From IMG/VR virus record IMGVR_UViG_3300029485_000297: a DNA stretch of 64,000 nucleotides, one strand, 5' to 3'. The position numbers and the translations under genes are program-made. The stretch's first letter is position 1. Each line of letters begins with the position of its first letter. A model generated the notes under the pieces. The model saw nothing but the letters and a program-made list of their open reading frames with translations. It made no database searches and had not been told where the DNA came from. Source of the DNA: a virus (Duplodnaviria > Heunggongvirae > Uroviricota > Caudoviricetes). Positions 3,383-55,248 of this stretch are shown here, piece after piece.

Positions 3383-3877
3383 AGAAATGAAATGGATTGA
3401 GATTTTACGGAAAAATGATTGTGCATTACTGCAAAGCGAAAGTGATACACAATATGCAGTTGTTAGTGGTTACGATCCAACGTAACCAGAAGGTCAGCAA
3501 TGGGCGCATGGAACGTATTTTACTTATTTCCAGAATAATCCTAAGAAGATATTATATCTTCAATCAGCTTATGATTGTTTTATGGAAAAGGTAAACGCAG
3601 ATTTTATCCCACGTTGCAGGCTTGAAGAACTTGCAACATTCTTTGCGGATAGACTTATCTCTGACGACAGGGAAAGTGCAATGGAATATTTTGATGAATA
3701 TTGCGAGATGTCAGAGGAAGAGAAATCTTTCTTTGGTATTGAAGAAGATAGCCCGATAGCAAATACTAAATTTGAGAATCCAATGTACAACAAGGGATAT
3801 GATGATGGATTTGCAGATGGGGCAAACAGCATAGAAGAGTAAATGGATATTTCATAGTGAAAGGTAGGTAAAAAAGA

Positions 3878-4306: not shown

Positions 4307-5272
4307 TGATTTAGAAGGCACTTGTTTTGCACAGTGTTCTACCAAAGAAAAGGCAGAAAAGGCAATGCAAATTCTTAAAGAAAACGGTTTTGAAGATATG
4401 CTTGAGGTTGAACAAAGTAATTTAAGATTAGACCAGTTAGTGATTCAAGATAAAATAATTCAGTTGTAAAAGAAATTCGCATTTCTTTAGAAGATTGGAG
4501 GAATCAAAAATGAAAAAATCAAACATTAGAGTATTCGGAGAAATAAGTATTGCACATGTGGAAAAGAGAGGTTTATTTTCATATGCGGTTGTAAGGGACT
4601 TTGATAAAAAGGTACTTGCCAAATCTTTTTCATTTAGAAAATACATAAACGATACTATTCGTACAATGTATACAGGAGAATATTACGCAACAGGTGATTA
4701 CATATTGGTTGCTGACACTGTAAATGGAAATAAAGAAATTTATAGATGGCATTGAAACTAAGATTTTTTAGGAAGGAGTGAAGGGAAATGGCAAAATATA
4801 CATGTAGCAAGACAAAGGATGAAATTCTTGAAATTATTGCAGAGGAATTTAGAAAAGTAAATAAGGATTATGATGATGCAATGCAGAACGACAATGATAA
4901 ACTCAAAGAACGGAATCAGGGTAGATATGTAGCAATGTTTGATTTGTTACATAAGTTAGAAATTTATGAAAAGGAGTGAAGCGAAATGACAACTATTGAA
5001 AAGTCAAAAGAGGATGCACGGAACTTAAATGAACTCACGGATCATCTGATTAAGCTGCTTGAATCGGATGACAAGCGGTTCTCATTTGAATTTTGTGCAG
5101 GTGGCACAATGGAGATTTACGACAAAGAAAAAGAAATCGGTTATGCAGTTCACATTGCACCGATTGAATATGATGAGAACGGAAAAGCAATAAATTTATA
5201 GTAACCGCAAGGCAGTTAGGAGAATAATCTACTAGCTGCCTATTTTATTACAAGAAAGAGAGGAAATGAATT

Positions 5273-13214: not shown

Positions 13215-14105
13215 ATGTTGTTATTCAAAAATTACTCTATGGAATGGTTGAAAGTGTTTAAAAGTATGAAATCATATAATACTCAAAGATTATATAAAAA
13301 TATCATAGAAAATCATTTAATTCCAGAAATAGGGAATAAGGAAATGTGTGATATTTCTATAAATGATCTTCAAGAAATTATAAATAAAAGATTGTCAAAT
13401 CCTGCAACATGTAAACATATTGCATTAACTTTGAAACAAATTTTTAGAGTAGCAAAAGAAGAGAAAATCATAGATAAAACAATTTATACTTTTTTACAAA
13501 CACCATTTTATGAAGCGAGCGAAAAAAGATCCTTAACTGAAGACGAGAAAATGTGTATACGTAATATTAAATGCGACAATATGGGTAAAATATTTGTTCA
13601 TATATTGTATTGTTGTGGATTGCGGAAAGGCGAGGCGTTGGCATTAACTAAAAATGATATAGTTAATAACGAAATTATTATAAATAAATCTATACATTTT
13701 ATTAATGGTAAACCAATTATAGGAGAAACAAAAACGCATTCTAGTACAAGAAAAGTTCCTATTCCAGATTTTTTATTAAAAGAGCTTTTATCTTATTGTA
13801 AAAATATAGATAATAAGCTCTTTTATAATTCAGACGGAGAATATCTTAATGATAGTGAATATGTAAAGATGTGGAAAAATATTGTTAAAAGTATTGACAA
13901 TGAAATAGGCGTAGAAACAAAACTTACAGCACATATATTTAGACATAATTATGCAACAGTTTTATATTATTCAGACATATCATTAAAACAAGCAGCTAAG
14001 TTAATGGGACATTCAAATGTAAATATGATTTTAAATGTATATGCTCATTTAGATGCAAAAAATGAAAGAGTTTCAGAAAAGATAAATCAAATTTTTCAAA
14101 TATAA
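13215..14105 (+). CDS. tyrosine site-specific recombinase (phage integrase family, short XerC/D-like)
   Basis: Box I GLRKGEALALTKNDI. Box II HIFRHNYATVLYYSDISLKQAAKLMGHSNVNMILNVYAHL (R..H..R..Y). RBS AAGAAGGTGAG. Confidence 0.8.
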   Translation: MLLFKNYSMEWLKVFKSMKSYNTQRLYKNIIENHLIPEIGNKEMCDISINDLQEIINKRLSNPATCKHIALTLKQIFRVAKEEKIIDKTIYTFLQTPFYEASEKRSLTEDEKMCIRNIKCDNMGKIFVHILYCCGLRKGEALALTKNDIVNNEIIINKSIHFINGKPIIGETKTHSSTRKVPIPDFLLKELLSYCKNIDNKLFYNSDGEYLNDSEYVKMWKNIVKSIDNEIGVETKLTAHIFRHNYATVLYYSDISLKQAAKLMGHSNVNMILNVYAHLDAKNERVSEKINQIFQI

Positions 14106-23044: not shown

Positions 23045-24085
23045 ATGAAAGGTAGGTTGATGATAATGTGTTATAAAATAGAAGTGCAGAATAAAAATGC
23101 GGAGAAGCTTAATAAAAAATTAGATGAGTTAAATGCACCACAATTTTTAAGAGATTACTTAAATGAGTTGGAAAGCAAAAACGGAGCGTTAAATTATCTG
23201 GTAGCAATTAAAGATTTTTTACAGTGGTTAATTGAAAATAATATCATTAATAAGAAACTAATTTCTGAAATAGAAGTTTCCGATTTTAATGACCTAAGAC
23301 CACAAAATATTAGTTCATATCTTAGATATAAGGAAACAAATGGAATGTCACCAACCACAACGGAAACAAGAAAAAACATCATTAAAAGTTTTATACAGGA
23401 TATTTATTCATATAGAGAATGTTTGTTGAGAGAACTCTATAACAGTATGAAAGATTTTAATAAACAAATAAAATATAAAGGAATATCTTCTAAAAACAAC
23501 TTAACACAAAAACTTCCAACAGAAAATCAGCTTAATGATATGGAAGAAAAAATAATGTGTAAAAAGGACGAATGTGTAAGGAATAGGAATATTGCTATTT
23601 TTCGTGTGTTAAGAGGAACTGGAATAAGAGAGTCTGAACTTGCTGGCTTGGATTTATCAGATTTGCATTTAGATGAAAATAGTGAATATATTGATCTTAA
23701 TGATATGTCACATATTATGGTTTTACCAAAAGGATACCAAAGAGAAACTGAAAAAAGACCTGTATATCTTACTGGATCTGCTCTGAAAGCATTAAGAGAA
23801 TGGCTAGAGTACAGAAATACATTGAATAATATTGTAGACAAAGAAGCTGTGTTCATAAATAAAAATGGTACACGTACAACAGAGAGAAATATCAAACAGA
23901 TATTTGAGAATTATGGAAATGGTATTACTCCACATATGATGAGACATTATTATGCCAGTGTAATGAATCAGAATGGAAATCTTGCATTTGTACAGCAACA
24001 GTTAGGACATAGTAATGTAAATACAACAGTTAATAATTATGCAAATGGTGCAGTGGGAATGAAAGATGTACTAAATAATATGTGA
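23045..24085 (+). CDS. int: tyrosine integrase (phage integrase family)
   Basis: GIRESELAGLDLSDL box I. HMMRHYYASVMNQNGNLAFVQQQLGHSNVNTTVNNYAN box II. In-frame ATGs at 23045, 23060 and 23066. Confidence 0.8.
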   Translation: MKGRLMIMCYKIEVQNKNAEKLNKKLDELNAPQFLRDYLNELESKNGALNYLVAIKDFLQWLIENNIINKKLISEIEVSDFNDLRPQNISSYLRYKETNGMSPTTTETRKNIIKSFIQDIYSYRECLLRELYNSMKDFNKQIKYKGISSKNNLTQKLPTENQLNDMEEKIMCKKDECVRNRNIAIFRVLRGTGIRESELAGLDLSDLHLDENSEYIDLNDMSHIMVLPKGYQRETEKRPVYLTGSALKALREWLEYRNTLNNIVDKEAVFINKNGTRTTERNIKQIFENYGNGITPHMMRHYYASVMNQNGNLAFVQQQLGHSNVNTTVNNYANGAVGMKDVLNNM

Positions 24086-25527: not shown

Positions 25528-26235
25528 ATGTACTTTCGTACATTTTTTCCAAAAATTACCAAATTTAATAGTGTTTTAATTTTTCTTTGGTATACCCAAA
25601 GTTTATTAAAGTACGCCAAAAGTCAGAAGGGAGTGATTTTTTTGGATTATGTAATAAGAAGTGGCAAAGTTTATATCCGTGTCAATAATGGGAAAACAGA
25701 AACTTGTGCAGAAAAAATGAAAGGTATATTTAGTGAAACAAAAGCAAGAAATATATTACATTCATTACCAAAAACATTAAAGAGATATGGTTTTCATATC
25801 GAAGCAATACCTGATATACCACCTAAAACCATAGAAAATAATACATATAAAATACCCGAATCCGTTTCACAATGGATTGATAAATTCGGTTCAATTGGAC
25901 AGACGTTAAATGAAGCGGAAGCGAGAAGTAACATACTCATAGCTGAACTTAATACTTGTGATGATGAACTTATAGATATTGTTCATGATGCTGAATTAGA
26001 GAATGATATGAATATGTATAAAGGATATCTGTTATATGTCAGACTTCGTAAGAATCGTAGAAGAAGACGTGAATTAAAGGATGAACTAATGATTATATCT
26101 GATGTATTGGATGAAATAAAGCAACCATCAAAATTTCAAAAAGAGCGTATTCAGAAAGCTGTTGATGGATTATTACATAGAAAATATAAGTATCGTGTTA
26201 CGGAAATAGAAGAAGATGAAAAAAGTGCGAAGTAA
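25528..26235 (+). CDS. hypothetical basic protein (start uncertain)
   Basis: Long ORF with an RRRR cluster. The first convincing internal ATG codes for MKGIFSETK. Confidence 0.35.
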   Translation: MYFRTFFPKITKFNSVLIFLWYTQSLLKYAKSQKGVIFLDYVIRSGKVYIRVNNGKTETCAEKMKGIFSETKARNILHSLPKTLKRYGFHIEAIPDIPPKTIENNTYKIPESVSQWIDKFGSIGQTLNEAEARSNILIAELNTCDDELIDIVHDAELENDMNMYKGYLLYVRLRKNRRRRRELKDELMIISDVLDEIKQPSKFQKERIQKAVDGLLHRKYKYRVTEIEEDEKSAK

Positions 26236-26271
26236 ATCGAGAATATATAAATGGAAAGGTAGGTAGATGGC

Positions 26272-26928
26272 ATGATTAATAAAGAAATGATGTTGGTTAT
26301 TAAAAACAATCCTAAATTGTCAGAAATACTTGATTTATATATGGCAAATGAAATGAAGAAGTTAAAAAATATTTGCTATAAAATATGGAAAGGTAAGGTT
26401 GATAATTACGAAGAAGATGAATTGCTTGACGATGCTATAGAAGTATTAATAGAATCTTTAGTTACATATGACGCTAAAAGTAAGGCAAAATTTGAAACTT
26501 ACCTAACGGGTAATATTTCAAGATCGTCTTACAGTTGGTTTCGGGATAATAAATATACAGGCTGCCGAAATAATCTTGCCAGAGATGGTAATGGAAAGAT
26601 TATATATGAAGATGTTAATGGCAAGAAAAGACCTATAAGAATTGACAATGTTTCATTTGACTTGGATAGTGACGAAACACAGAATTTAAAAGAAACACTA
26701 TCATCCAAGATAAACATAGAAGATATTCTCATTGCGGAGGAATATACAGATAAGGTTGAACTATATCTTAGCAATTTACCTAAAAGAGTTAGAGGCGTAG
26801 CAAAGTTATTTTCTCAAGAATACAATCGAGATGAAATTATGGAATTATTACATATAACAGAACAACAATTATTAGACTGTATGAAGATTCTAAAGTCATA
26901 CGAATACATATCATTATTATTTAATTAA
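26272..26928 (+). CDS. sigma-70 family (ECF-like) sigma factor
   Basis: Region-2-like DDAIEVLIESLVTYDAKSKAKFETYLTGNISRSSYSWFRD. Region-4-like HTH LPKRVRGVAKLFSQEYNRDEIMELLHITEQQL. Confidence 0.5.
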   Translation: MINKEMMLVIKNNPKLSEILDLYMANEMKKLKNICYKIWKGKVDNYEEDELLDDAIEVLIESLVTYDAKSKAKFETYLTGNISRSSYSWFRDNKYTGCRNNLARDGNGKIIYEDVNGKKRPIRIDNVSFDLDSDETQNLKETLSSKINIEDILIAEEYTDKVELYLSNLPKRVRGVAKLFSQEYNRDEIMELLHITEQQLLDCMKILKSYEYISLLFN

Positions 26929-26946
26929 AGAAGGGAGAATATTACA

Positions 26947-28491
26947 ATGGCAGTAATGTTAGGAAGAGATAAGGTAGTAAAGACACAATTAATGTTAGGA
27001 ACGGTGATTAAGCAGTTTAGAACAAATGTAATCAATAAGAATCATCCATTACAGAGAAAACCTGATCAGTGGTCGGACGAAGCAAAATCTGGACTTGCTG
27101 CCAGTGTAATTAAACATGAAGATATTGATTCAATTAAATTATGTGAACAGATTTACGAAAATAGTTTCACAAACTGGCTTATTGATGGATTACAGAGATT
27201 AACTGTATTGGAAGAGTTTAAAAATAATGTCTTTGCAATGGGAAAATCATTGAGAATGCCTATGATAGCTTATCAAGCTGAAGATGGAAGTGGTAATGTT
27301 GTTGAGTATGATTTAAGAGGTAAGAAATACAAAGACCTTCCAGATGAGTTAAGAGAAGAATTTGATAATTTCCAGGTAGATATAGTTAAGCATCTTGATT
27401 GTACTAATGAAGAGATAGCTTATCATATTGATAGATATAATAAGCAGACAAGTATGAATACAAATCAGAAAAATGTTTTGATGATGTATAAAGTGGTAGA
27501 TTCACTTAAAAGGGTTACAAAGAATAGATTCTTCTTGGACTGTGGTGAATATACAGCACCTGAAAGAAAGAAAGAAGTATTAAATAGAGTAGTTGAAGAG
27601 TCATTAATATTAATGTTCCATTCTGATTCTTGGAAGAAAAACGTAGCTATGGCTAAGTATCTTAATGAAAATGCCGCAGAAGAGGAATTCAATATATTAG
27701 AAGAGGAACTTAATAGATTACAAAAAGTAATAGATCAAGATACTAACGGACAGTTATTTAATAGCAAGAATAGCTTTATTTGGTTGGCAGCTTTTCATAA
27801 GTTTACTTCATATAACATAGAAGATATTAAATTTGCTGATTTCTTAAATGAATTTCAGGGAATATTACATAGCAAGACATTTAAAGAATATGATAATGAA
27901 TCATTTGATACATATGATAGCAACCGAAGCACAAAGGATAAAAAAGTTGTAATGGCTAAGTTAGATATGGTTACTAAGCTTATGGAAGAATATTTACATA
28001 TAAATAAGGAAGAAACTCATTCAGAAATCGAAGAAGTTGTTGAAAATACAACAGAAAACACAGTACAAATTATCTCTGAAACAGAGAATAATACTATGTC
28101 TTCTAATGAAGACGATGAAACAGATAGTAATATATCAGAACAGAATACGGGTAGTTCTGATGTATTACAGTTTGTTCAAAATAGTGTGGCAGAAGATATA
28201 GAGAATGAAGATATAAGTGAATATCAAGATTTTGTTGATGTATATATTGATATAAATTCATCGTTATATAAACAGTGTGAAGCAGCGTTAATGGCATTAA
28301 CAGCTTATGCTTATAAAACTGATAAGGATGAAGAACTTGCAACTTGGATTGAACAGTATCAGAAGAATTCAATTGATAAGACATATAGTTCTTCGCAGGA
28401 AGTAAATTATAGATATATGAAGAGAGATTTTGATAATTACATAAATTTCTTAAATAATATGGAGAAAGGAAGAACAGCTAGTGTTAATTAA
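26947..28491 (+). CDS. DUF262 (ParB-like/GmrSD N-terminal) domain protein with long acidic C-terminal tail
   Basis: HPLQRKPDQWS (QR...W) and LIDGLQRLT (DGQQR-type) motifs. The C-terminal ~150 aa are extremely D/E-rich. Confidence 0.6.
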   Translation: MAVMLGRDKVVKTQLMLGTVIKQFRTNVINKNHPLQRKPDQWSDEAKSGLAASVIKHEDIDSIKLCEQIYENSFTNWLIDGLQRLTVLEEFKNNVFAMGKSLRMPMIAYQAEDGSGNVVEYDLRGKKYKDLPDELREEFDNFQVDIVKHLDCTNEEIAYHIDRYNKQTSMNTNQKNVLMMYKVVDSLKRVTKNRFFLDCGEYTAPERKKEVLNRVVEESLILMFHSDSWKKNVAMAKYLNENAAEEEFNILEEELNRLQKVIDQDTNGQLFNSKNSFIWLAAFHKFTSYNIEDIKFADFLNEFQGILHSKTFKEYDNESFDTYDSNRSTKDKKVVMAKLDMVTKLMEEYLHINKEETHSEIEEVVENTTENTVQIISETENNTMSSNEDDETDSNISEQNTGSSDVLQFVQNSVAEDIENEDISEYQDFVDVYIDINSSLYKQCEAALMALTAYAYKTDKDEELATWIEQYQKNSIDKTYSSSQEVNYRYMKRDFDNYINFLNNMEKGRTASVN

Positions 28492-28677
28492 AACATTGTT
28501 AAAAAGTATTGTATTAAAAAAGAAAATGCAAATTGAAATAATGGAAACCTTGTCTGATATTTGTTTATATATGCAATTAGACGGATTCAAAAAAGATAAT
28601 GGGTATGGTCAATTTATGTATACACACTATAGCAATTTACAGGATATTTTAAAAGAGTATAAGGGAGAAAAATAACT

Positions 28678-28878
28678 ATGCCAGATATTACAATGTGTAC
28701 AAGCAAAACATGTGAAAGAAGAAAACAGTGTTATAGAGCAATAGCAAAGCCAGATAAGATACAAAGTTATGCTGATTTTACTTCGTTATGTGCAGATAGA
28801 GATTTTAGGTGTCAATGGATTGTTACTGACAGAGAAGTACTTGCTGATGATATAAGTAGCTTGTTAGTAAGATGCTAA
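28678..28878 (+). CDS. small Cys-rich protein
   Basis: CTSKTCERRKQCYR...C...C over 66 aa. Confidence 0.4.
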   Translation: MPDITMCTSKTCERRKQCYRAIAKPDKIQSYADFTSLCADRDFRCQWIVTDREVLADDISSLLVRC

Positions 28879-29180
28879 AATACAGGAGAATAATAAAATG
28901 GATAAAGATACAAATAAGCGAAATGAACTTAGAAAACAGTTACAAGCCTTATCAAAGGAGCGAATTATTGAATTATATATTCACTTATTCATGAATTTTG
29001 CTAATGATAAGGATGAAACCGATTGGGAAGATATTAAATAGAAGAGAACAGATTGCACAAGTTTACCGACCTAAACAACCTGCTCAGAGAATAAAATATA
29101 GGATAAACTATATATGTTCTATTATAACAAATCTATTTGGCTAATTCAAGCCAGTTTATCCTATAACAATTAGTCTTTTG

Positions 29181-29257
29181 ACTACGGGCTATTTTGAGTC
29201 CGAATAGTGAGGATTATATCACTCACTGAAAAGTATGTAATTTATATGTAATTTGAA
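29181..29257 (+). other. conserved leader/scaffold element 1 (hairpin - GAAT - hairpin - anti-repeat-like segment - TTTGAAG)
   Basis: Stem cgggct/agtccg with ATTTTG loop, GTGAG...CTCAC hairpin, and GTATGTAATTT complementary to the repeat core AAATTACATAC. Homologous to 29505-29586 and 31188-31268. Confidence 0.45.
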
Positions 29258-29487
29258 GTTTTGGAAGTATATGAAATTACATACTAACAAAATTAATAGA
29301 GATGATAAATGATGAAAGTATACGTTTTGGAAGTATATGAAATTACATACTAACAAAATATCTGGCAACAGAGAGGAGATGTTTCAGTTGTTTTGGAAGT
29401 ATAGTTACATACTAGCAAAATTACATAATATGTATCGACACAAGTTATAAATTTTTAGAAGTATATAAAATTACATCTCATTAAAAG
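29258..29487 (+). CRISPR. CRISPR-like mini-array 1 (4 repeats, 3 spacers)
   Basis: 36-nt repeat GTTTTGGAAGTATATGAAATTACATACTAACAAAAT identical at 29258 and 29324. 30-nt unique spacers. The third repeat is 32 nt with a 4-nt deletion, the fourth is degenerate. Confidence 0.6.
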
Positions 29488-29504
29488 AATATATAAATGA
29501 AATT

Positions 29505-29586
29505 AAAATCAATTCTATTGCGGTAGATTTTACTGCCGAATCGTGAGTGCAATGCAACTCATGAAAATCTATGTAATAAGTTTGAG
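29505..29586 (+). other. conserved leader/scaffold element 2
   Basis: Stem cggtag/ctgccg with ATTTTA loop, CCGAATCGTGAG, hairpin, and TCTATGTAAT complementary to the array-2 repeat core. Ends TTTGAG directly before the first repeat. Confidence 0.45.
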
Positions 29587-29754
29587 GTTTTAGATACATA
29601 TAAAATTACATAGGTATAAAACAAACCTGTTGAAATTGTTGAAGATATAGAAGTTTTAGATACATATAAAATTACATAGGTATAAAACACTTGCGTTGTT
29701 GTACTTGTAAGCTGTTTAATTTTAGAGATATTTAAAATTACAAAAAATATAAAA
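29587..29754 (+). CRISPR. CRISPR-like mini-array 2 (3 repeats, 2 spacers)
   Basis: 36-nt repeat GTTTTAGATACATATAAAATTACATAGGTATAAAAC identical at 29587 and 29653. 30-nt spacers. A degenerate terminal repeat at 29719-29754 abuts the nuclease RBS. Confidence 0.6.
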
Positions 29755-29769
29755 GGAGATTTACAAATT

Positions 29770-31158
29770 ATGGGAAACAATAGAATGACAATTTGTAGAA
29801 AAATTAAATTATTTCCAGTAGGAGATAAGGATGAAATCAATAGAGTATATAACTTTATTAGAAATGGTCAGTATGCTCAATATCAGGCTTGTAACCTGCT
29901 TATGGGACAGCTTATGAGTGAATATTACAAATATAATCGTGATATTAAGAATGAAGAATTTAAGGCAAGACAGAAAGAAATAATGACAAACTCTAATATC
30001 ATATTAAAAGATATTGATTTTGCAACTGGTGTAGACACTCCATCAGCCGTTACTCAGAAAGTCAAGCAGGATTTCAGCACAGCTTTAAAGAATGGATTGG
30101 CTAAAGGTGAACGAACTGTAACAAATTATAAGAGAACTAATCCACTTATTACAAGAGGCAGAAACTTAACTTTTTATCATGAGTATGAAACATATCATGA
30201 TTTTTTAGACAAGATTAATGATTCTGATTTGGCGGTATATGTCAAGTGGGTTAATAAAATTGTATTTAAGGTTGTGTTTGGCAATCCGCATAGGTCATTA
30301 GAGTTAAGATCTGTTATTCAGAATATATTAGAAGAGAATTATAAAGTGCAAGGAAGTAGCATTGAAATTGATGGTAAGTCAATCATTTTAAATCTCTCAA
30401 TATCTATTCCAAAACAACTTAGAGAGCTGGATGAAAATATAGTAGTAGGTGTTGATTTAGGCATTGCAGTTCCTGCTATGTGTGCTTTAAACAATAATCT
30501 TTACGAGAGATTGGCAATTGGAAATGCAGATGATTTTCTAAGAATAAGAACTAAAATGCAAGCTCAGAGAAAAAGATTACAGAAGTCATTACGAAATACT
30601 TCTGGTGGTCATGGTAGAGCAAAGAAACTGAAAGCATTAGAAAGATTGCAGAAAGCAGAAGTACATTTTGTTGAAACATATTGTCATATGATAAGTAAAA
30701 GAGTCGTTGATTTTGCTTTAAAACATAATGCTAAATACATAAATATTGAGAATTTAACAGGATATGATACAAGTGATTTTATCCTGAGAAATTGGAGTTA
30801 TTATAAACTTCAAGATTATATTACATATAAAGCAGCTAAATACGGAATAGAAGTAAGAAAAATCAATCCTTGTTATACATCACAGATTTGTAGTGTATGT
30901 GGTAATTGGGAGTTTGGTCAGAGAAAGTCACAGTCAGTATTTGAATGTGCAAATGAGAATTGTGATAGTCATAAAAAATATGAAAAAACTGGTTTTAATG
31001 CAGACTTCAATGCTGCCAGAAACATTGCAATGTCAACTCTTTGGATGGGAAGTGGACAAGTTACTGAAAAGAGTAAACAGGAAGCAAGAGAATATTATGA
31101 TATCTCTGAAAAATATGAACAAAGTAAGAATGGTTCAGAGAATAATAAAGTAGCTTAA
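29770..31158 (+). CDS. TnpB/Cas12-family RuvC nuclease, 462 aa (compact type V-like effector candidate)
   Basis: RuvC-I VVGVDLGIAVPA. RuvC-II KYINIENLTG. Zinc finger CYTSQICSVCG...CANENC. RuvC-III NADFNAARNIA. N-terminal MTICRKIKLFPVGD as in TnpB/Cas12f. RBS AAGGAG 29753-29758. Confidence 0.85.
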   Translation: MGNNRMTICRKIKLFPVGDKDEINRVYNFIRNGQYAQYQACNLLMGQLMSEYYKYNRDIKNEEFKARQKEIMTNSNIILKDIDFATGVDTPSAVTQKVKQDFSTALKNGLAKGERTVTNYKRTNPLITRGRNLTFYHEYETYHDFLDKINDSDLAVYVKWVNKIVFKVVFGNPHRSLELRSVIQNILEENYKVQGSSIEIDGKSIILNLSISIPKQLRELDENIVVGVDLGIAVPAMCALNNNLYERLAIGNADDFLRIRTKMQAQRKRLQKSLRNTSGGHGRAKKLKALERLQKAEVHFVETYCHMISKRVVDFALKHNAKYINIENLTGYDTSDFILRNWSYYKLQDYITYKAAKYGIEVRKINPCYTSQICSVCGNWEFGQRKSQSVFECANENCDSHKKYEKTGFNADFNAARNIAMSTLWMGSGQVTEKSKQEAREYYDISEKYEQSKNGSENNKVA

Positions 31159-31187
31159 GTGCTACTTAATCAATCGTAAGATTGCAG

Positions 31188-31268
31188 GTGATTTTGCACC
31201 TGAATGGCGAGGTTGTTAATTAATGGCACTCGTTAGAATCTATGTTAATAGTATCTGTGTGATTTGAG
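31188..31268 (+). other. conserved leader/scaffold element 3
   Basis: Stem caggtg/cacctg with ATTTTG loop, then GAATGGCGAGG, then ATCTATGTTAA complementary to the downstream repeat core TTAACATAGAT. Ends TTTGAG. Confidence 0.4.
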
Positions 31269-31370
31269 GTTTTAGATATGTTTAATTTAACATAGATACA
31301 AAACACGGTTAAGACAACATTTTACTCAGTAAAATGATTATTCAATATAGATACTACAGAAATGTTGAGA
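31269..31370 (+). CRISPR. CRISPR-like mini-array 3 (1 repeat, 1 spacer, degenerate repeat)
   Basis: GTTTTAGATATGTTTAATTTAACATAGATACAAAAC relates to the array-2 repeat. A 30-nt spacer follows, then a degenerate copy containing ATAGATAC. Confidence 0.4.
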
Positions 31371-31419
31371 TTATCAAGCTAATGGAAGAAAAATATAATA
31401 CGAAAAGGAGAATAGTTAA

Positions 31420-31581
31420 ATGTCAGTATTTTTTATATTAGTTTTAATAGGATTAATAATTTTATGGTTTCTACTGTCACCTTTATTTGAAAAAATTGGT
31501 AAGTTTGTTATCAATGTTATAAATAAAGTATTTTCGACAGATGAAATAAATAATAACGAAGAAAAGGAGACAAAAGAATGA
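31420..31581 (+). CDS. small single-pass membrane protein (NfeD-like partner candidate)
   Basis: 53 aa with hydrophobic helix FFILVLIGLIILWFLL. AAAAGGAG RBS. Stop overlaps the SPFH start (ATGA). Confidence 0.35.
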   Translation: MSVFFILVLIGLIILWFLLSPLFEKIGKFVINVINKVFSTDEINNNEEKETKE

Positions 31582-43972: not shown

Positions 43973-44731
43973 ATGTTAGAGATTAACAAAATATACAATG
44001 AAGATTGTCTTGAAGGTATGAAAAAGATTAATGATAAATCGGTTGATTTTATACTCACGGATCTTCCGTTTTCAACAACCCAGAATTCATGGGATGTGCT
44101 AATTCCATTCGAGTCGTTATGGGAACAATACGAGAGAATTATCAAAGATAATGGCTGTATTGCATTATGGGCGCAATCACCATTTGATAAGAAACTCGCT
44201 TGTAGTAATGAAAAGCTATATCGCTATGAATGGATTATCGAAAAGACCAAAGCAACTGGTCATCTAAATGCAAAGAAAATGCCTATGAAGGCACACGAAA
44301 ATGTCTTAATTTTCTATAAGAAACTCCCTACTTACAATCCTCAAATGACAGAAGGGCATACACCCGTACATTCTTATACGAAACATACAACAGATGGTAA
44401 TTGTTATGGTGCTACAAAAACTGGTATTTCAGGTGGTGGTAGCACACAAAGATACCCAAGAGATATTCTGCAGTTTAAGTGGGATACTCAGAAAAGTAGC
44501 TTGCATCAGTGTCAAAAACCTGTTGAAGCATGTGAGTATTTTATCAAGACATACACAAATCCAGGCGATTTAGTTCTTGATTCATGTGCAGGAAGTTGCA
44601 CAACTGCGATTGCAGCTATGAATACGAATAGAAATTACATATGTTTTGAGAAGGATAAGGATATTTTTGAAGTTGGAAGTAAGAGAGTTACTGAATATGC
44701 TCATCAGGATTTATTAATGAGTGCAACATAA
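43973..44731 (+). CDS. beta-class N6-adenine/N4-cytosine DNA methyltransferase
   Basis: N-terminal FILTDLPF (DPPY-type variant). C-terminal HQCQKPVEACEYFI...GDLVLDSCAGSCTTAIAA (H.tQKP ... FxGSGTT-type motif I). Confidence 0.65.
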   Translation: MLEINKIYNEDCLEGMKKINDKSVDFILTDLPFSTTQNSWDVLIPFESLWEQYERIIKDNGCIALWAQSPFDKKLACSNEKLYRYEWIIEKTKATGHLNAKKMPMKAHENVLIFYKKLPTYNPQMTEGHTPVHSYTKHTTDGNCYGATKTGISGGGSTQRYPRDILQFKWDTQKSSLHQCQKPVEACEYFIKTYTNPGDLVLDSCAGSCTTAIAAMNTNRNYICFEKDKDIFEVGSKRVTEYAHQDLLMSAT

Positions 44732-45663: not shown

Positions 45664-46389
45664 ATGGTTTATCAAGGAAGTAAAAATAGATTGGCAAAAT
45701 TTTTAGTGCCAATTATTCAGAAGTATATTGATGATAACAATATTAAAACTTACATAGAACCTATGTGTGGTAGTTGTTCAATAATAGAACAGATTAAATG
45801 TGATAATAAAATTGCATCAGATATAAATGATGAACTTATTGCTTTACTACAATATGCTAAGTCAGATGCAGAGTTATCTATCGCACCCGAAGATTGTTTA
45901 TTTGAACATTATGCGGATGTTAGAGAGAATAGAAAACATGGTACAAATAAATATTCTAAAGAATATACGGCTCTCATTGGTTATTGCGCATCCTATGGCG
46001 GTAGATATTTTGAAGGTGGATTTGGTAGAGATAAGACTGGTAAACGAAATATCTATGCTGAAAGAGTTAAAAATTTGAAAGAAGATTGTGAACTACTCCA
46101 AAATATAGATATTAGATGTTGTGATTATAAAGACTTTGCAGATTATAAAAACTGTCTTTTCTACTTCGATCCCCCATATCGTAATACAAAACAGTATTCT
46201 AAACAGTCAATCAATTATGACGAATTCTACGATTTTCTTCGTAAACTTTCAGAGAATAATATAGTGTTGATAAGTGAATATAACATGCCTAATGATTTTA
46301 AGTGTATCTGGCAGAAAGAACGTAAAGTGTTGCAGAAGTCAGATAGAGTTACAGGTGAAAAAGCAGTAGAAAAGCTATTTGAGATTTAA
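45664..46389 (+). CDS. Dam-family (D12-class) N6-adenine DNA methyltransferase, copy 2
   Basis: QGSKNRLAKFLVPII...YIEPMCGSCSI and LFYFDPPYRNT. Roughly 45% identical by eye to the 40187 copy. Confidence 0.7.
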   Translation: MVYQGSKNRLAKFLVPIIQKYIDDNNIKTYIEPMCGSCSIIEQIKCDNKIASDINDELIALLQYAKSDAELSIAPEDCLFEHYADVRENRKHGTNKYSKEYTALIGYCASYGGRYFEGGFGRDKTGKRNIYAERVKNLKEDCELLQNIDIRCCDYKDFADYKNCLFYFDPPYRNTKQYSKQSINYDEFYDFLRKLSENNIVLISEYNMPNDFKCIWQKERKVLQKSDRVTGEKAVEKLFEI

Positions 46390-48112: not shown

Positions 48113-49321
48113 ATGGAGCAGATCATTAACAGTTTATTAGAAACAGACGCATATAAGCTTTCAATGGGACAGGCTATTTATCATCAGTTTAGCGATTACA
48201 AGACTACTTGGAGTTTTAGATGTCGTAACAAGGATGTATTTTTTACACCTGAAATGGTAGAGGAAATCAAGAGACAGATTAAGTTATATTGTGGTCTGAG
48301 ATTTACAGAAGATGAACTTTCTTATATTGATAATATCAAGTGGATGAAAGGTTCATATGTAGATTTTCTGAGATTGTGGCAACCAAGATATGAAGATTTT
48401 GAAATTACAACAGACGCTGAGTGTGGATTGGCAATTGAGACAAGGGGAACATGGCTTAACACTTCTATGTATGAGATTCCAACTCTTGCTATCGTCAACG
48501 AGGTTTATTTCAGAATGGCTTACAACTATGATGAATTACTTGAAAGTTTCAAGAAGAGACTTGATGAAAAGTATGAAAATCTTAGAAGTGGTCATTGGTA
48601 TGTAGGTACTTTTTCAGAATTTGGTCTGAGACGTAGACTTTCTGCTGAAGCACAGGAGTTAGCTGTTGAGAAGTTTTCACATTTGAATGATACATTGCAT
48701 AGTCCATCTAAGTTTGTTGGTACATCTAATGTATATCTCGCAAAGAAATATAATCTCACGCCTGTTGGAACTATGGCTCATGAATGGATTATGTGTTCTG
48801 GTCAGGGCAACCACAAGCACAATCCAGCATATTCAAACTGGTATGCCCTAGACGCATGGGTTAGAGAGTATGGTGTGTTAAATGGTATTGCGCTCACAGA
48901 TACAATTACAACTGATTGTTTCTTGAAAGATTTTCAGTTGACATATGCAACATTATTCAGTGGTGTAAGACATGATAGTGGTGATCCGATTGAATGGGGT
49001 GAAAAGATGATTAATCATTATGAGTCACTTGGTATCAATCCTAAGACAAAGACACTTCTGTTTAGTGACAGTCTTGATTTTGAAAGAGCTGATAAGTTAT
49101 TCAGACACTTCCATGATAGAGTAAACGTTGCATTTGGAATTGGTACTTATTTGAGTAATGACACAGATGTTCCTGCTTTAAATATTGTAATGAAAACCAC
49201 TAAATGTAACGGTATGGATGTTGCAAAAGTGTCTGATGTAGAAGGTAAAGGTATGTGTAAAAACCCTGATTATGTTGATTATTTAAAGAGATGTATTAAT
49301 TGGAGAATGAATCATGAATAA
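48113..49321 (+). CDS. pncB: nicotinate phosphoribosyltransferase
   Basis: Collinear with E. coli PncB: SLLETDAYKLSM, FRCR, GTSNVYLAKKYNLTPVGTMAHEW, GIALTDTITTDCFLKDF, GVRHDSGDPIEWGEKMINHYESLGINPKTK, FGIGT, LNIVMK..CNG..VAKVSD..GK..C. Confidence 0.9.
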   Translation: MEQIINSLLETDAYKLSMGQAIYHQFSDYKTTWSFRCRNKDVFFTPEMVEEIKRQIKLYCGLRFTEDELSYIDNIKWMKGSYVDFLRLWQPRYEDFEITTDAECGLAIETRGTWLNTSMYEIPTLAIVNEVYFRMAYNYDELLESFKKRLDEKYENLRSGHWYVGTFSEFGLRRRLSAEAQELAVEKFSHLNDTLHSPSKFVGTSNVYLAKKYNLTPVGTMAHEWIMCSGQGNHKHNPAYSNWYALDAWVREYGVLNGIALTDTITTDCFLKDFQLTYATLFSGVRHDSGDPIEWGEKMINHYESLGINPKTKTLLFSDSLDFERADKLFRHFHDRVNVAFGIGTYLSNDTDVPALNIVMKTTKCNGMDVAKVSDVEGKGMCKNPDYVDYLKRCINWRMNHE

Positions 49322-49940
49322 AATTTTACTTATACCAGGAAGTTTTAATCCAATTACTAACGCCCATGTTGATATGGCATTGACTGCTAAAAAAGCGGTT
49401 AATGCCGATGCTATATTATTTATTCCTGCACATGATACATATGTTGCGAAGAAAAAGACTTTGATACCTGGATATTGTCGGGTATCGCTGATTAATTCAA
49501 TGCCAAATTGTGATGAAAATAATATGTGGGCATCCGAAGTTGAAACAACCAGCTTCTTTCCACAGAGGACATACAATACTATTACTCAGATAAGAGATAT
49601 GAATGAAAAAGATTATATCTTCAACGAATACTATATTTGTTTAGGAATGGATAACATTGAAACACTTACAACTTGGTATAATTGGAAACCGTTTGTTGAG
49701 GAATATAATTTTGTAGCATGTGTGAGAGAAGGTCAGAATCTTGAGACTGCTTTAAGAGAAGCAAATCTTATGGAATATAAAGATCACTTTACAGAAATTC
49801 AGATACCTGAAAATCATACTTCTTCAAGTTTGGTTAGAGATTTATGTGAACAAGGTGAATTTGAAAAGGTAAAAGAATTAGTCCCTAGAAATGTATATGA
49901 GTATTTAATTCGGTTCTATGATGTAATGAATCGAATGTAG
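49314..49940 (+). CDS. nadD: nicotinate/nicotinamide mononucleotide adenylyltransferase-like nucleotidyltransferase
   Basis: GSFNPITNAH ((H/T)xGH-type motif) and TSSSLVRD (ISxxxxR motif). 208 aa, the NadD size. Start overlaps the pncB stop. Confidence 0.6.
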   Translation: MNKILLIPGSFNPITNAHVDMALTAKKAVNADAILFIPAHDTYVAKKKTLIPGYCRVSLINSMPNCDENNMWASEVETTSFFPQRTYNTITQIRDMNEKDYIFNEYYICLGMDNIETLTTWYNWKPFVEEYNFVACVREGQNLETALREANLMEYKDHFTEIQIPENHTSSSLVRDLCEQGEFEKVKELVPRNVYEYLIRFYDVMNRM

Positions 49941-49956
49941 GAAGGAGAATATATAA

Positions 49957-50688
49957 ATGTTTGATGCTAAGAAAGTAAAAAATGAAATCGTAGAGTGGAT
50001 CAGAAATTGGTTTGAACAGAATGGTAAAGATTGTATGGCAGTTGTTGGTATCTCAGGTGGAAAGGATTCAAGTGTTGTGGCAGCATTATGTGTAGAAGCT
50101 CTTGGTAAGGATAGAGTAATTGGAGTCCTTATGCCACAAGGAGAACAAAGTGATATCGAATATTCAAAAATGTTGGTTGATTTTTTAGACATCACTAGAA
50201 TTACGTGCAATATCGAGGGTGCTGTCAATGAAGTGTTAGAGAGTTTTCAAGGTGTAGTTTCACCGACACCTCAGACAACAACAAATCTTCCTGCTCGTAT
50301 TCGTATGGCTACATTATATGCTATTTCCCAGTCAGTAAATGGTCGTGTTGCTAATACGTGTAATCTTTCCGAAGATTGGGTTGGTTACGCCACAAGATAT
50401 GGAGACGCAGCAGGTGATTTTAGTCCGTTATCACAGCTTACAGTTTCGGAAGTTAAGGCTATTGGTCGTGAGTTAGGACTTCCATCTGAGTTAGTAGATA
50501 AGACACCTACTGACGGTCTTTGTGGAAAGACTGACGAGGACAACCTTGGATTCACTTATGACACTCTTGATAGATATATCAGAACAGGAGAGATTAATGA
50601 TGGGGATGTAAAAGCGAAGATTGATTCAATGCATGAGAAGAATTTGTTCAAGCTTCAGCTTATGCCTTCATTCTATCCAAATTTCTAA
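49957..50688 (+). CDS. nadE: NH3-dependent NAD+ synthetase
   Basis: PP-loop VVGISGGKDSS, NLPARIRMATLYAI, TRYGDAAGDFSPL and GFTYDTLDRY are collinear with E. coli NadE. Confidence 0.85.
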   Translation: MFDAKKVKNEIVEWIRNWFEQNGKDCMAVVGISGGKDSSVVAALCVEALGKDRVIGVLMPQGEQSDIEYSKMLVDFLDITRITCNIEGAVNEVLESFQGVVSPTPQTTTNLPARIRMATLYAISQSVNGRVANTCNLSEDWVGYATRYGDAAGDFSPLSQLTVSEVKAIGRELGLPSELVDKTPTDGLCGKTDEDNLGFTYDTLDRYIRTGEINDGDVKAKIDSMHEKNLFKLQLMPSFYPNF

Positions 50689-52086: not shown

Positions 52087-52917
52087 TTGAGTAATATAAA
52101 GAGTCCACTTAATTATGTAGGTGGCAAGTATAAGTTACTACCAATCATTATACCGATGTTTCCAGATAAGATAAATACTTTCGTGGATTTATTTGGTGGA
52201 GGTTTTAATGTTGGTATTAATGTAAAGGCTGATTACATTATCTACAATGATATATGTGAACAGGTAGTTGGTTTTCTAAGATATTTACAAGGTTCAAATA
52301 TTGAAGAAGTATTACATAAGATTGATTCATATATTAATAAGTATGGATTAACTAAAGAAAACAAAGAAGGATATTTACTGTTTAGAGAAGAATATAACAC
52401 AGGTATTAAAGACCCAATTAAATTCTATACGCTTTTATGTTATGCGTTCAATAATCAAATCAGATTCAATTCCAAAGGTGAATACAATATGCCTTTTGGT
52501 AAAGATAGGTCAAGTTTTAATCCCACTCTTAGACAAAAATTTATAGATTTTCATAAGCGGCTAAATGAAATAGACTGTAGTTTCTTAAATATTCCATTTG
52601 AGAGATTTGATTTTTCCGATTTTACGGAAGGCGATTTTGTTTATGCAGATCCACCATATTTCAATTCTGTTGCTACATACAATGAAAACGGTGGCTGGAC
52701 AGAAGAAATGGAGAATAAATTACTAGAGACTCTTGATACGTTGAATGATAAAGGTGTTAAGTTTGCATTAAGTAATAATCTCAAATATGACAATCCATTA
52801 CTTGATAAATGGAAAGATAAATACATAGTTCATTATTTAAAGCATGATTATAGCAACTGCAATTATCAGAAAAAGGACAAGAGTGCCGATTGTGAGGTAT
52901 TAATCACAAATTATTAA
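52087..52917 (+). CDS. Dam-family (D12-class) N6-adenine DNA methyltransferase, copy 3 (divergent)
   Basis: NYVGGKYKLL...FVDLFGGGFNVG and VYADPPYFNS. The start is probably TTG 52087. Confidence 0.65.
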   Translation: MSNIKSPLNYVGGKYKLLPIIIPMFPDKINTFVDLFGGGFNVGINVKADYIIYNDICEQVVGFLRYLQGSNIEEVLHKIDSYINKYGLTKENKEGYLLFREEYNTGIKDPIKFYTLLCYAFNNQIRFNSKGEYNMPFGKDRSSFNPTLRQKFIDFHKRLNEIDCSFLNIPFERFDFSDFTEGDFVYADPPYFNSVATYNENGGWTEEMENKLLETLDTLNDKGVKFALSNNLKYDNPLLDKWKDKYIVHYLKHDYSNCNYQKKDKSADCEVLITNY

Positions 52918-54546: not shown

Positions 54547-55248
54547 ATGAGCAAAAAGAAATTTTTTAAAGGTCTTAAATTTCATTATCGTTTTAATGAT
54601 AAGGAGTTATTAGACAAATATGAAACTATTGAAGATTTCTTAAATACGAGTTTTCCTAAAAATAATAATCCATTATCACCAAATTTGGATACAGAAATTT
54701 TTAAGATTGTTTGGAATAGACATTTACTTTCTGATTATATTCCTAACCAGATTAAAACAGTAGATGATTTGTTGAATATTTTGAGTAATGAAGATATTTG
54801 TAATGTTTTATTAACTAAGCAATTTTGCAAATCAAAACTAAAGCAAAAATTAAAACATGAGGATTTGATTCGCAAAGAAATTTACTCTATTGATGAAGTT
54901 AGAGAAAAAACAAAGGATGTTTTGTTTGAAAAAGATAAAAGAAATGCAAAAGTTGATTTTGATGGTGATTTGATTAAAGGTAATAGTCAAAGATACCAAA
55001 CATTTTTCACAAAAGGCTGTAAATGTGTAGTTTGTGGAGTTGAAGGCAAATATTTTGCTAAAGAAAGACATTTACAGGATAAAACTTATCATCTGAATTT
55101 ATATGCAGTCGATGATAATGGTAATGAAATTTTAATGACAAAAGATCATATTTTACCACGTTCAAAAGGTGGTATTGATGATATTAGTAACTATCAAACA
55201 ATGTGTAAGCTTTGTAATGAAGCTAAAGGTAACAAATTAGAAGATTAA
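54547..55248 (+). CDS. HNH endonuclease
   Basis: C-terminal CVVCG...DHILPRSKGGIDDISNYQTMCKLCNEAKGN is an HNH/zinc-finger core. Confidence 0.65.
   Translation: MSKKKFFKGLKFHYRFNDKELLDKYETIEDFLNTSFPKNNNPLSPNLDTEIFKIVWNRHLLSDYIPNQIKTVDDLLNILSNEDICNVLLTKQFCKSKLKQKLKHEDLIRKEIYSIDEVREKTKDVLFEKDKRNAKVDFDGDLIKGNSQRYQTFFTKGCKCVVCGVEGKYFAKERHLQDKTYHLNLYAVDDNGNEILMTKDHILPRSKGGIDDISNYQTMCKLCNEAKGNKLED

Follow-up and report, generated by a model that had tools for sequence, protein, structure and literature searches.

Leaders of a phage-borne Cas12f1 locus as probable compact tracrRNA genes, each adjoining its own mini-array

The locus considered here lies on the plus strand of a 64,000-nucleotide (nt) stretch of phage DNA (IMG/VR record IMGVR_UViG_3300029485_000297; 'the window' hereafter denotes this whole stretch), and consists of a gene for a Cas12f nuclease and three short CRISPR arrays, each preceded by a structured leader. 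Each leader is very probably a compact gene for a trans-activating CRISPR RNA (tracrRNA) of a phage-borne type V-F1 Cas12f system, arranged head-to-tail with its own mini-array on the cas12f strand, an identification supported by predicted structure, covariation, homology to a characterised Cas12f tracrRNA and the match of each leader to its cognate repeat. Overall, the system is of the known Cas12f1 tracrRNA/CRISPR RNA (crRNA) kind in a distinct form, and not a new class of system; it is set apart by the fusion of a minimal tracrRNA to every mini-array, by several co-evolving modules for each nuclease, by carriage on phage DNA and by a leader end in the style of type II-A. This modular, minimal, phage-borne tracrRNA-array form was not found in the searchable literature. 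The original prediction of a tracrRNA-like scaffold, made from the sequence alone, is borne out by the Cas12f1-family gene beside them, by their homology to the RhCas12f tracrRNA and by covariation with more than 100 homologues.

A phage-borne Cas12f1 locus with three modules

The locus is compact, with module 1 (leader 29171–29257) and module 2 (leader 29510–29586) followed by a gene for a 462-amino-acid (aa) protein (29770–31158) and, after its stop codon, module 3 (leader 31171–31268). These were the only modules detected in the 64-kb window by the covariance model described below, and the large open reading frames (ORFs) of the window all lie on one strand. The three-module layout is kept in 20 close relatives, whose spacers differ, and proteins 95–100% identical to the 462-aa product are encoded on IMG/VR viral contigs of 7–186 kb (most 75–186 kb). 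A megablast search of the GenBank phage collection with window positions 26000–34000 gave no match. Genome contigs scanned with the single Cas12f protein yielded nothing, and a scan with a protein alignment recovered mainly distant TnpBs, the useful loci being only L027–L031 (related loci are named by such numbers where they need to be told apart). No Rfam family matched positions 28900–31450, either at the gathering threshold or at E up to 5, and across the whole window the Rfam matches were two tRNAs only.

Alignment places the nuclease in the Cas12f1 clade of CnCas12f1 and RhCas12f. The best PDB matches were CnCas12f1 (8hr5, E 8e-88) and RhCas12f (9nzp, E 2e-81; Guan et al. 2026, PMC13186708), with Al3, Os and AsCas12f next in rank; the alignment to the first two is near full length, with the RuvC D/E/D catalytic residues and the zinc finger conserved. 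The protein also matched NCBIfam guided_TnpB (161 bits against a cutoff of 100, E 3.6e-47) and the Pfam families Cas12f1-like_TNB (E 1.7e-15) and OrfB_IS605. The Cas12f1 branch, formerly V-U3, lacks adaptation genes (PMC7229846; PMC10691335). The elements of the locus, with the evidence for each in brackets, are as follows.

29171–29184, plus strand: module 1 stem 0, TAGTC-tttt-GACTA, abutting hairpin 1 (stem-0 survey of modules)
29185–29202, plus strand: module 1 stem 1, CGGGCT-ATTTTG-AGTCCG, with loop 29191–29196 the predicted pseudoknot strand (fold, covariation, RhCas12f stem 1 homology)
29206–29227, plus strand: module 1 stem 2, AGTGAGG...CACTCACT (fold, covariation, GAGG...CACUC motif common to RhCas12f stem 2)
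29232–29243, plus strand: module 1 anti-repeat AGTATGTAATTT, predicted to pair with repeat positions 17–28 (29274–29285) (fold, covariation, cognate duplex energy)
29251–29257, plus strand: module 1 leader end ATTTGAA, abutting the GTTT of the repeat; close relatives have ATTTGAG (type II-A leader-end motif, PMC5382924)
29258–29487, plus strand: array 1, with repeats at 29258–29293 and 29324–29359, degenerate repeats at 29390–29421 and 29452–29487, and 30-nt spacers (repeat search)
29510–29520, plus strand: module 2 stem 0, CAAT-tct-ATTG (stem-0 survey of modules)
29521–29538, plus strand: module 2 stem 1, CGGTAG-ATTTTA-CTGCCG (fold, covariation, covariance model)
29542–29563, plus strand: module 2 stem 2, CGTGAGT...ACTCATG (fold, covariation)
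29567–29577, plus strand: module 2 anti-repeat ATCTATGTAAT, predicted to pair with 29605–29615 (ATTACATAGGT), one pair being G-U (fold, cognate duplex energy)
29580–29586, plus strand: module 2 leader end GTTTGAG (junction conservation)
29587–29754, plus strand: array 2, with repeats at 29587–29622 and 29653–29688, a degenerate repeat at 29719–29754, and two 30-nt spacers (repeat search); it ends 15 nt upstream of the cas12f ATG
29770–31158, plus strand: cas12f gene, 462 aa, Cas12f1/former V-U3 clade (RuvC motifs GVDLG, IENL and NADFNAARN; CxxC...CxxC zinc finger)
31171–31184, plus strand: module 3 stem 0, CAATC-gtaa-GATTG (stem-0 survey of modules)
31185–31202, plus strand: module 3 stem 1, CAGGTG-ATTTTG-CACCTG (fold, covariation, covariance model)
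31206–31234, plus strand: module 3 stem 2, GGCGAGG...CACTCGTT (fold, covariation)
31238–31248, plus strand: module 3 anti-repeat ATCTATGTTAA, predicted to pair with 31287–31297 (fold, cognate duplex energy)
31262–31268, plus strand: module 3 leader end ATTTGAG (junction conservation)
31269–31304, plus strand: module 3 single repeat, an 'empty' array without a spacer (repeat search, comparison with relatives)
31318–31336, plus strand: hairpin CATTTTAC-tca-GTAAAATG, 13 nt past the lone module 3 repeat, which may be the end of the module 3 transcript (read from the sequence; not called by the terminator scan)

Leader architecture and homology to a characterised tracrRNA

The three leaders align, and have in common a 6-bp hairpin with an ATTTT(G/A) loop (stem 1), AAT, a second hairpin of the form GAGG...CACTC (stem 2), an anti-repeat and the junction (A/G)TTTGA(G/A). 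The shared architecture claimed in the original prediction is accordingly present in all its elements, with the 6-bp hairpin and its loop found in all three modules and followed each time by AAT, and only its measurements needed adjustment: the proposed starts (29181, 29505 and 31188) are a few nt off, hairpin 1 beginning at 29185, 29521 and 31185; the complementary block, put at 9–11 nt and about 20 nt before the repeat, is present but is 11–12 nt long and lies 14, 9 and 20 nt away; and the TTTGAG junction holds for modules 2 and 3 but reads TTTGAA in module 1. Three features had been overlooked altogether, namely a small hairpin 5′ of stem 1 (stem 0), a pseudoknot, and the match of the junction to the type II-A leader end.

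The guide of RhCas12f seen by cryo-electron microscopy begins A-CGGCUG-AUUUAG-CAGCCG-AAG-UCUGAGG...CACUCGG and continues in its 3′ part as ...CAUUCCA-GAAA-UGGAAUGUAAAU, after which comes the spacer (PMC13186708 Supplementary Data). Stem 1, the type of its loop, the AA(G/U) linker and the GAGG/CACUC stem 2 are all common to this guide and the leaders, and the occurrence of the same 5′ elements indicates that the leaders are homologous to a characterised tracrRNA.

Stem 0, defined as at least 4 bp ending 0–1 nt 5′ of stem 1, occurred in 64% of 81 distinct modules, against 20–30% at positions shifted by 4–15 nt. Its sequences are unrelated between modules, other examples from modules in L125–L185 being CATAC/GTATG, CGATC/GATCG and TAGCTT/AAGCTA, and it could protect the 5′ end, act as an insulator or signal processing. 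The trinucleotide ..AAT usually precedes stem 0 and may be a −10 element. The module 1 leader additionally contains a tandem duplication at 29234–29254, TATGTAATTT-A-TATGTAATTT, which gives it two candidate copies of the anti-repeat; in the predicted fold the main duplex is formed with the first copy, and the helix is lengthened by the second.

Covariation and cognate pairing

Minimum free energy folds of each leader with its first repeat, the co-folding that had been proposed as a check, gave the same three helices in all three modules (z-scores −6.0, −3.9 and −4.2). Across 15 module variants, 93% of the cells in the alignment pair, as opposed to 26–45% when the partners are slid. A covariance model built from these variants was then used on further loci with protein identities of 44–73%, where 64 loci gave 145 matches to it, every one on the strand of cas12f, with up to six per locus and with 48 upstream and 97 downstream of the cas12f gene. 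Among 111 distinct modules from these related loci, of phage and metagenome origin, 87% of cells are in standard pairs compared with 32–44% for slid partners, 31 of the 32 proposed base pairs change on both sides, and none of 500 shuffles reached the observed score. The claim that hairpin 1 is kept by compensatory changes stands, and the covariation, whose loss on adding homologues would have spoken against a selected structure, persists with more than 100 homologues added. G-U cells outnumber A-C cells (218 vs 102), which fits an RNA of the plus strand, though the alignment was fitted by the model and leans that way; the bias is modest evidence for a plus-strand RNA.

The anti-repeat helix comprises 13 pairs, every one of which changes on both sides across the 111 modules, and 11–12 bp in each module of the window. 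The proposed complementarity of the block to the central part of its own repeat was upheld by duplex energies: cognate anti-repeat:repeat duplexes in the window come to −13.1, −11.9 and −12.1 kcal/mol and non-cognate ones to −3.2 to −9.2 kcal/mol, and pairing with the module's own repeat was better than with those of its neighbours in 184 of 198 within-locus comparisons. The orthogonality of tracrRNA and repeat is partial, not absolute.

Covariation had been claimed at two levels, both of which are confirmed, and a third is added by the predicted pseudoknot between the stem-1 loop and the end of the repeat. The loop ATTTT(G/A) is complementary to the final 5–6 nt of the repeat, which directly precede the spacer, in a helix termed R:AR-1 (repeat:anti-repeat helix 1). 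In the window the loops AUUUUG, AUUUUA and AUUUUG face repeat ends CAAAAU (module 1, 29288–29293), UAAAAC and CAAAAC (module 3, 31299–31304), with the G/A of the loop tracking the C/U of the repeat end across the three modules. The helix covaries although it was absent from the search model, an omission that makes it an independent test, and its five inner pairs are mostly kept among the 111 modules; pair 12-314, for example, is UA in 45 cases, CG in 12, GC in seven and AU in four. Covariants of loop and repeat end include ATTTCG:CGAAA, ACTTTG:CAAAG, ATTTCA:TGAAA, ACCTTT:AAAGG and ATTTGG:CCAAA. The RhCas12f guide has the equivalent complementarity (stem-1 loop AUUUA, repeat end UAAAU), and a pseudoknot between the tracrRNA and the repeat's 3′ end is a general Cas12 feature (bioRxiv 10.1101/2025.01.20.633832).

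Scaffold size and relationship to the array

Measured from stem 1 through the anti-repeat, the tracrRNA core is 59 nt long at the median of 96 modules (59–64 nt in the window), and contains stems 1 and 2 and the anti-repeat, with the small 5′ hairpin in addition. The linker between anti-repeat and first repeat has a median of 15 nt (range 0–31) in the same 96 modules and is 9–20 nt in the window. Arrays have one to six repeats, with a single repeat in 68 modules (47%), two in 58 and more in 20, so that most modules have roughly one tracrRNA per spacer. A scan with terminator consensuses called no terminator-like site between the anti-repeat and the first repeat, and promoter-like sites found with promoter consensuses were no commoner than in shuffles (17 vs 17.8). 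A plausible −35/−10 pair was present upstream of module 2 only (TTAAAA-17-TAAAAT, ending at 29509), and a position-specific logo of the region upstream of stem 1 revealed no conserved −35/−10 at a fixed distance, only the weak ..AAT before stem 0.

The short linker and the lack of a called terminator favour co-transcription, and tracrRNA and array are inferred to be made as one transcript. Such an RNA would consist, from 5′ to 3′, of stem 0, stem 1, AAU, stem 2 (GAGG...CACUC) and the 11–12-nt anti-repeat ahead of the repeats. The anti-repeat would pair with positions ~17–29 of the 36-nt repeat (R:AR-2) while the stem-1 loop AUUUU(G/A) would form the pseudoknot R:AR-1 with the last 5–6 nt of the repeat, and tracrRNA, first repeat and first spacer might in this way fold in cis as a natural single-guide RNA, later repeats being served in trans. 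The loop closing the anti-repeat:repeat hairpin would correspond to the part that engineers replace with GAAA (PMC13186708). A Cas12f dimer carrying these guides is proposed to cut the DNA of competing phages beside a 5′ T-rich protospacer adjacent motif (PAM).

Several observations weigh against this picture. A core of ~59 nt lacks the long stem 2 and further stem-loops of characterised Cas12f guides, which in Os, Rh and AsCas12f are 129–156 nt long with four to five stem-loops; guides this short are not known to be active, and an additional RNA element may be involved. Many of the single-repeat modules, close to half of the total, may be empty or decaying. Were the −10-like ..AAT before stem 0 to belong to a promoter, the transcript would begin within stem 0. 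The outermost pair of the pseudoknot is mostly A.C among the 111 modules, the PAM rests on one protospacer in an AT-rich region, and the 5′ and 3′ ends of the transcript, its processing and its use in cis or in trans are all inferred.

Alternative explanations for the leaders

That these regions are ordinary CRISPR leaders, comprising a promoter and DNA integration signals with hairpins and complementarity that are accidental or act at the DNA level, is suggested by their position and by the motif in which they end, which guides integration in type II-A systems. It is nevertheless a very improbable explanation in view of the covariation of 31 of 32 pairs, the bias of wobble pairs to the plus strand, the placement of 145 of 145 model matches on the cas12f strand and the direct sequence homology to the RhCas12f tracrRNA. 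No greater credence can be given to a reading of the leaders as omega RNA (reRNA) belonging to a mobile TnpB, in which the modules would mark transposon ends: the protein does score as guided_TnpB and matches OrfB_IS605, and module 3, directly past the stop codon, resembles a single scaffold with a downstream 'guide', yet the repeats are regularly spaced, the 30-nt spacers vary between near-identical phages, the scaffold begins after the stop codon without overlapping the 3′ end of the gene, and the protein groups with Cas12f1 nucleases already characterised. The ORFs listed or annotated around the locus, where insertion sequence ends were not searched for, included no TnpA.

A compact tracrRNA joined to its array also has to be set against the classical arrangement, in which a separate trans-acting tracrRNA ends before the repeat, the array has a promoter of its own (possibly the −10-like TATGTAAT inside the anti-repeat region) and the adjacency of the two reflects compaction of the phage genome. 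In known V-F1 loci the tracrRNA does come from the non-coding DNA that separates cas12f from the array, the Clostridioides difficile homologue discussed below has 94 nt between anti-repeat and array, and repeats beyond the first need service in trans in any event. Against these points stand the short linkers, the lack of a called terminator within them, the predominance of one or two repeats per tracrRNA, which would be wasteful if one trans-acting tracrRNA sufficed, and the better cognate pairing in 184 of the 198 comparisons; the classical arrangement is on this evidence unlikely. Two other candidates were considered and rejected, namely a DNA-level cruciform as the explanation of the leaders, and exploitation of the arrays by a Cas9 of the host, the central part of the repeat pairing with the phage tracrRNA and not with a tracrRNA of Cas9 type.

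A type II-A-like junction and possible borrowed adaptation

The sequence A-T-T-T-G-A-G/G-T-T-T, spanning the leader end and the start of the repeat, is the best-conserved unpaired block of the module, at ~80–90% per position in the 111 modules. The Group-1 type II-A leader end is ATTTGAG/GTTT, and type II-A repeats are 36 nt long with 5′ GTTT and 3′ AAAC (Van Orden et al. 2017, PMC5382924); as reported there of Wei et al. 2015, the last 10 nt of the leader and one repeat suffice for adaptation (PMC5382924). A metagenome scan with the pattern ATTTGAG/GTTTTAGA-N22-CAAAAC-N30-GTTTTAGA gave 70 loci of two kinds. Seventeen had a Cas12f tracrRNA module and short arrays, to which ~6 with a phage-like repeat and an anti-repeat-like block can be added, and ~47 had long arrays of 6–37 repeats, with csn2 immediately upstream in all four of those tested, cas1, cas2 and cas9 also confirmed in one and cas1 in another. 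None of Cas1, Cas4, Csn2 and Cas9 was found among the 30 window ORFs of at least 200 aa, a set in which a small Cas2 would be missed, and the arrays have cas12f as their neighbour in place of a type II-A cas9-cas1-cas2-csn2 operon. The locus is not a type II-A system, though possibly a client of one. Cas12f1 homologues with 29–30-nt repeats (L027, L029) are without the junction motif, which indicates that the effector itself does not need it.

A possible reading of these observations, though on balance a doubtful one, is that the arrays are built for filling by the type II-A adaptation machinery (Cas1-Cas2-Csn2) of the host. In its full form, which can be put forward only tentatively, the system would be chimeric: a Cas12f with a minimal ~59-nt tracrRNA would read arrays of type II-A format to which host Cas1-Cas2-Csn2 adds spacers, the modules would be natural single-guide RNA genes, and the anti-repeat and pseudoknot loop would co-evolve to read the resulting repeat. 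A sister lineage in Clostridioides would appear to do likewise with arrays of type I-B geometry, and array format in this Cas12f clade would be set by whichever adaptation machinery can be borrowed, rather than by the effector. The chief objection concerns the side of the PAM: acquisition of type II-A selects a Cas9 PAM on the 3′ side, whereas Cas12f needs a 5′ PAM, and only a fraction of spacers so acquired would be usable; moreover, 629 spacers from the scanned type II-A arrays had no match in the window or the phage loci, and the shared motif could stem from common descent or have a role at the RNA level.

The alternative that the junction instead serves the RNA or Cas12f, as a processing site or a scaffold contact, or was inherited from an ancestral captured array, with host type II-A machinery unexploited today, has a chance approaching even. 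It draws on this same conflict over the side of the PAM, on the missing host link among the type II-A spacers and on the shared ancestry of the modules, which means that conservation alone is no proof of selection for integration. It accounts less readily for the lack of the junction in same-clade homologues with 29–30-nt repeats (L029 of C. difficile, and L027), for the junction being the best-conserved unpaired block of the module, for the agreement of repeat length, spacer length and both repeat ends with true type II-A arrays, and for the gain of spacers with exact repeat duplication at module 3.

Arrays, spacers and targets

The repeats of the window are 36 nt and the spacers 30 nt, on the strand of the gene, and the pairing geometry puts the guide 3′ of the repeat. 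Close relatives with the same tracrRNAs hold ~156 distinct spacers, mostly of 30 nt. At the module 3 site, where the window has a single repeat and its flank (31269–31345) carries the hairpin CATTTTAC-tca-GTAAAATG, L015 and L017 (near 4500–4640) each have two identical repeats and one spacer, the spacers differing and the flank ACGGTTAAGACAAC... being the same; judged from these sequences, they are independent spacer insertions with duplication of the repeat. At the same site in L005–L010 (~4416–4490), stems 1 and 2 are kept and ..CAGAATTTTAAATAATACAAAAA stands in place of the anti-repeat and most of the repeat, leaving what looks like a tracrRNA plus half repeat, a one-piece scaffold of omega-RNA-like form, with the 5′ region of the next gene after it; module 3 of L013 has a different internal deletion. 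These forms could be decay products or natural minimal guides.

One spacer (L150:1772, AAAGGTGCAGACTTTTTGCACGATTAAAA) matches phages of human-gut Lachnospiraceae, Agathobacter, Coprococcus and Dorea (Ca. Heliusvirales), at 29 of 29 positions in six GenBank phage records and 28 of 29 in two others (for example PV036410.1, 48529–48557). The protospacer lies in or beside a small hypothetical gene, and its 5′ flank ...AATAATTTTT (TTTTT) is compatible with a T-rich 5′ PAM, this being a single protospacer. It was the only target found when ~100 spacers were searched by BLAST against GenBank phages; the ~156 spacers searched against all fetched loci returned array remnants only, and exact-pattern scans of IMG/VR with the spacers of the window returned the same arrays in related phages, or nothing. 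Separately, a spacer of L010 (L010:2811) matches 27 nt, on the minus strand, of the array region upstream of cas12f in L006–L009 (2860–2886), which could reflect an inverted shared spacer or targeting of the CRISPR locus of a rival. The role of the system is likely to be in competition between phages in gut Lachnospiraceae.

Comparison with known systems

Characterised V-F1 systems (RhCas12f, 9nzp; CnCas12f1, 8hr5; OsCas12f; AsCas12f) share with the window the effector clade, pairing of the anti-repeat with the repeat's 3′ half, an AUUU-rich stem-1 loop complementary to the repeat's 3′ end, AA(G/U), the GAGG...CACUC stem 2, the absence of associated adaptation genes and, as for module 3, a tracrRNA between the gene and a downstream array. 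The window differs in a core of ~59 nt against guides of 129–156 nt, a short stem 2, no stem-loops between stem 2 and anti-repeat, and tracrRNAs that lie 0–31 nt from the first repeat, one per mini-array; its 36-nt repeats have type II-A-like ends and its spacers are 30 nt, and the system is phage-borne, its related loci having up to six modules, which lie to either side of the gene. Scaffold length describes the family and does not define it. Type II-A Group 1 systems agree with it in the last 7 nt of the leader, the 36-nt repeat GTTT(TAGA)...(C)AAAAC and the 30-nt spacers. They differ in that the window has no cas9, cas1, cas2 or csn2 beside its arrays, in arrays of 1–6 repeats rather than 6–37, and in an upstream region that is a Cas12f tracrRNA pairing with the middle of the repeat.

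In the TldR/sigma-TnpB lineage derived from Cas12f, tracrRNA and half repeat are re-fused, and Cas12f1 and V-U40-43 have been described with 'omega RNA arrays' (Altae-Tran et al. 2023, PMC10691335), so the concept of a fused scaffold has precedent. Similarities of the window to TnpB omega RNA and TldR guides are a single RNA in which the scaffold has a 3′ guide, a pseudoknot beside that guide and a scaffold just downstream of the nuclease gene, and to omega RNA arrays the tandem scaffold-plus-guide units. The window is unlike omega RNA and TldR systems in its full 36-nt repeats, CRISPR spacing and spacer turnover, its retention of catalytic residues and an element that is not mobile; the fused form of tracrRNA and half repeat is confined to module 3 of L005–L010.

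Prophage arrays of C. difficile rely on type I-B Cas proteins of the host (Boudry et al. 2015, PMC4556805), and resemble those of the window in lying on phage DNA, lacking adaptation genes of their own and having a repeat geometry that follows a host system. One of the related loci (L029, C. difficile chromosome OX246690.1) encodes a 40%-identical Cas12f1 homologue between two arrays (1609–2052 and 3484–3860), which have 29–30-nt repeats and ~37-nt spacers, a type I-B-like geometry, and a ~120-nt tracrRNA copy per array; in repeats, spacers, tracrRNA length (core 119–121 nt) and the 94-nt gap to the array it is unlike the window. Prophage arrays without cas genes in C. difficile might also serve an overlooked Cas12f1, the correspondence of L029 to the arrays of Boudry et al. 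being presumed. The C. difficile repeat sequence was not found in a search of the literature, and the similarity of the L027 and RhCas12f repeats to type I-B repeats is one of array geometry and repeat consensus. The RhCas12f repeat end UGGAAUGUAAAU may resemble the clostridial type I-B repeat, and CnCas12f and RhCas12f use C-rich PAMs, like the type I-B CCW.

Genomic surroundings

Elsewhere in the window, PHROG and Pfam matched integrases, a number of DNA methyltransferases, an RNA ligase and, among others, enzymes for salvage of nicotinamide adenine dinucleotide (NAD). Two tyrosine-recombinase/integrase genes lie at 13215–14105 and 23045–24085, and genes for tRNA-Gln(ttg) and tRNA-Lys(ttt) at 32494–32644, which is 1.2 kb downstream of the locus. 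A tRNA-like sequence directly follows module 3 in two of the relatives, L014 and L019. At least six DNA methyltransferase genes of the D12 and N6/N4 classes fall within a 20-kb part of the window (coordinates in this region are 39206–40912, 43973–44731, 45664–46389, 52087–52917 and 58584–59360), a cluster that suggests heavy investment in anti-restriction. Three consecutive genes for NAD+ salvage or synthesis (48113–50688) encode a Nampt-like protein (PHROG 448), a cytidylyltransferase-like/NMNAT protein and an NAD synthase, and resemble the phage NAD+ reconstitution pathways that counter NAD-depleting defences. Genes for an HNH endonuclease (54547–55248), an RNA ligase (55314–56240) and a radical-SAM protein (57549–58445) are also present.

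Implications

The modules represent a Cas12f scaffold that nature has apparently reduced to an anti-repeat, a pseudoknot loop and two short stems, with a natural core about half the size of the scaffolds now being engineered for genome editors that fit adeno-associated virus vectors. More than 100 natural covarying variants amount to a set of design rules, including partly orthogonal sets of tracrRNA and repeat for one nuclease. Modules in which a tracrRNA stands next to its repeat may be seen as living intermediates between the one-piece omega RNA of TnpB and the split tracrRNA and crRNA, and bear on the origin of CRISPR arrays from transposon guide RNAs. If the type II-A-like junction is functional, a phage effector of one CRISPR type would be exploiting the host acquisition machinery of another type, and the human gut would be the scene of a new kind of piracy by phages.

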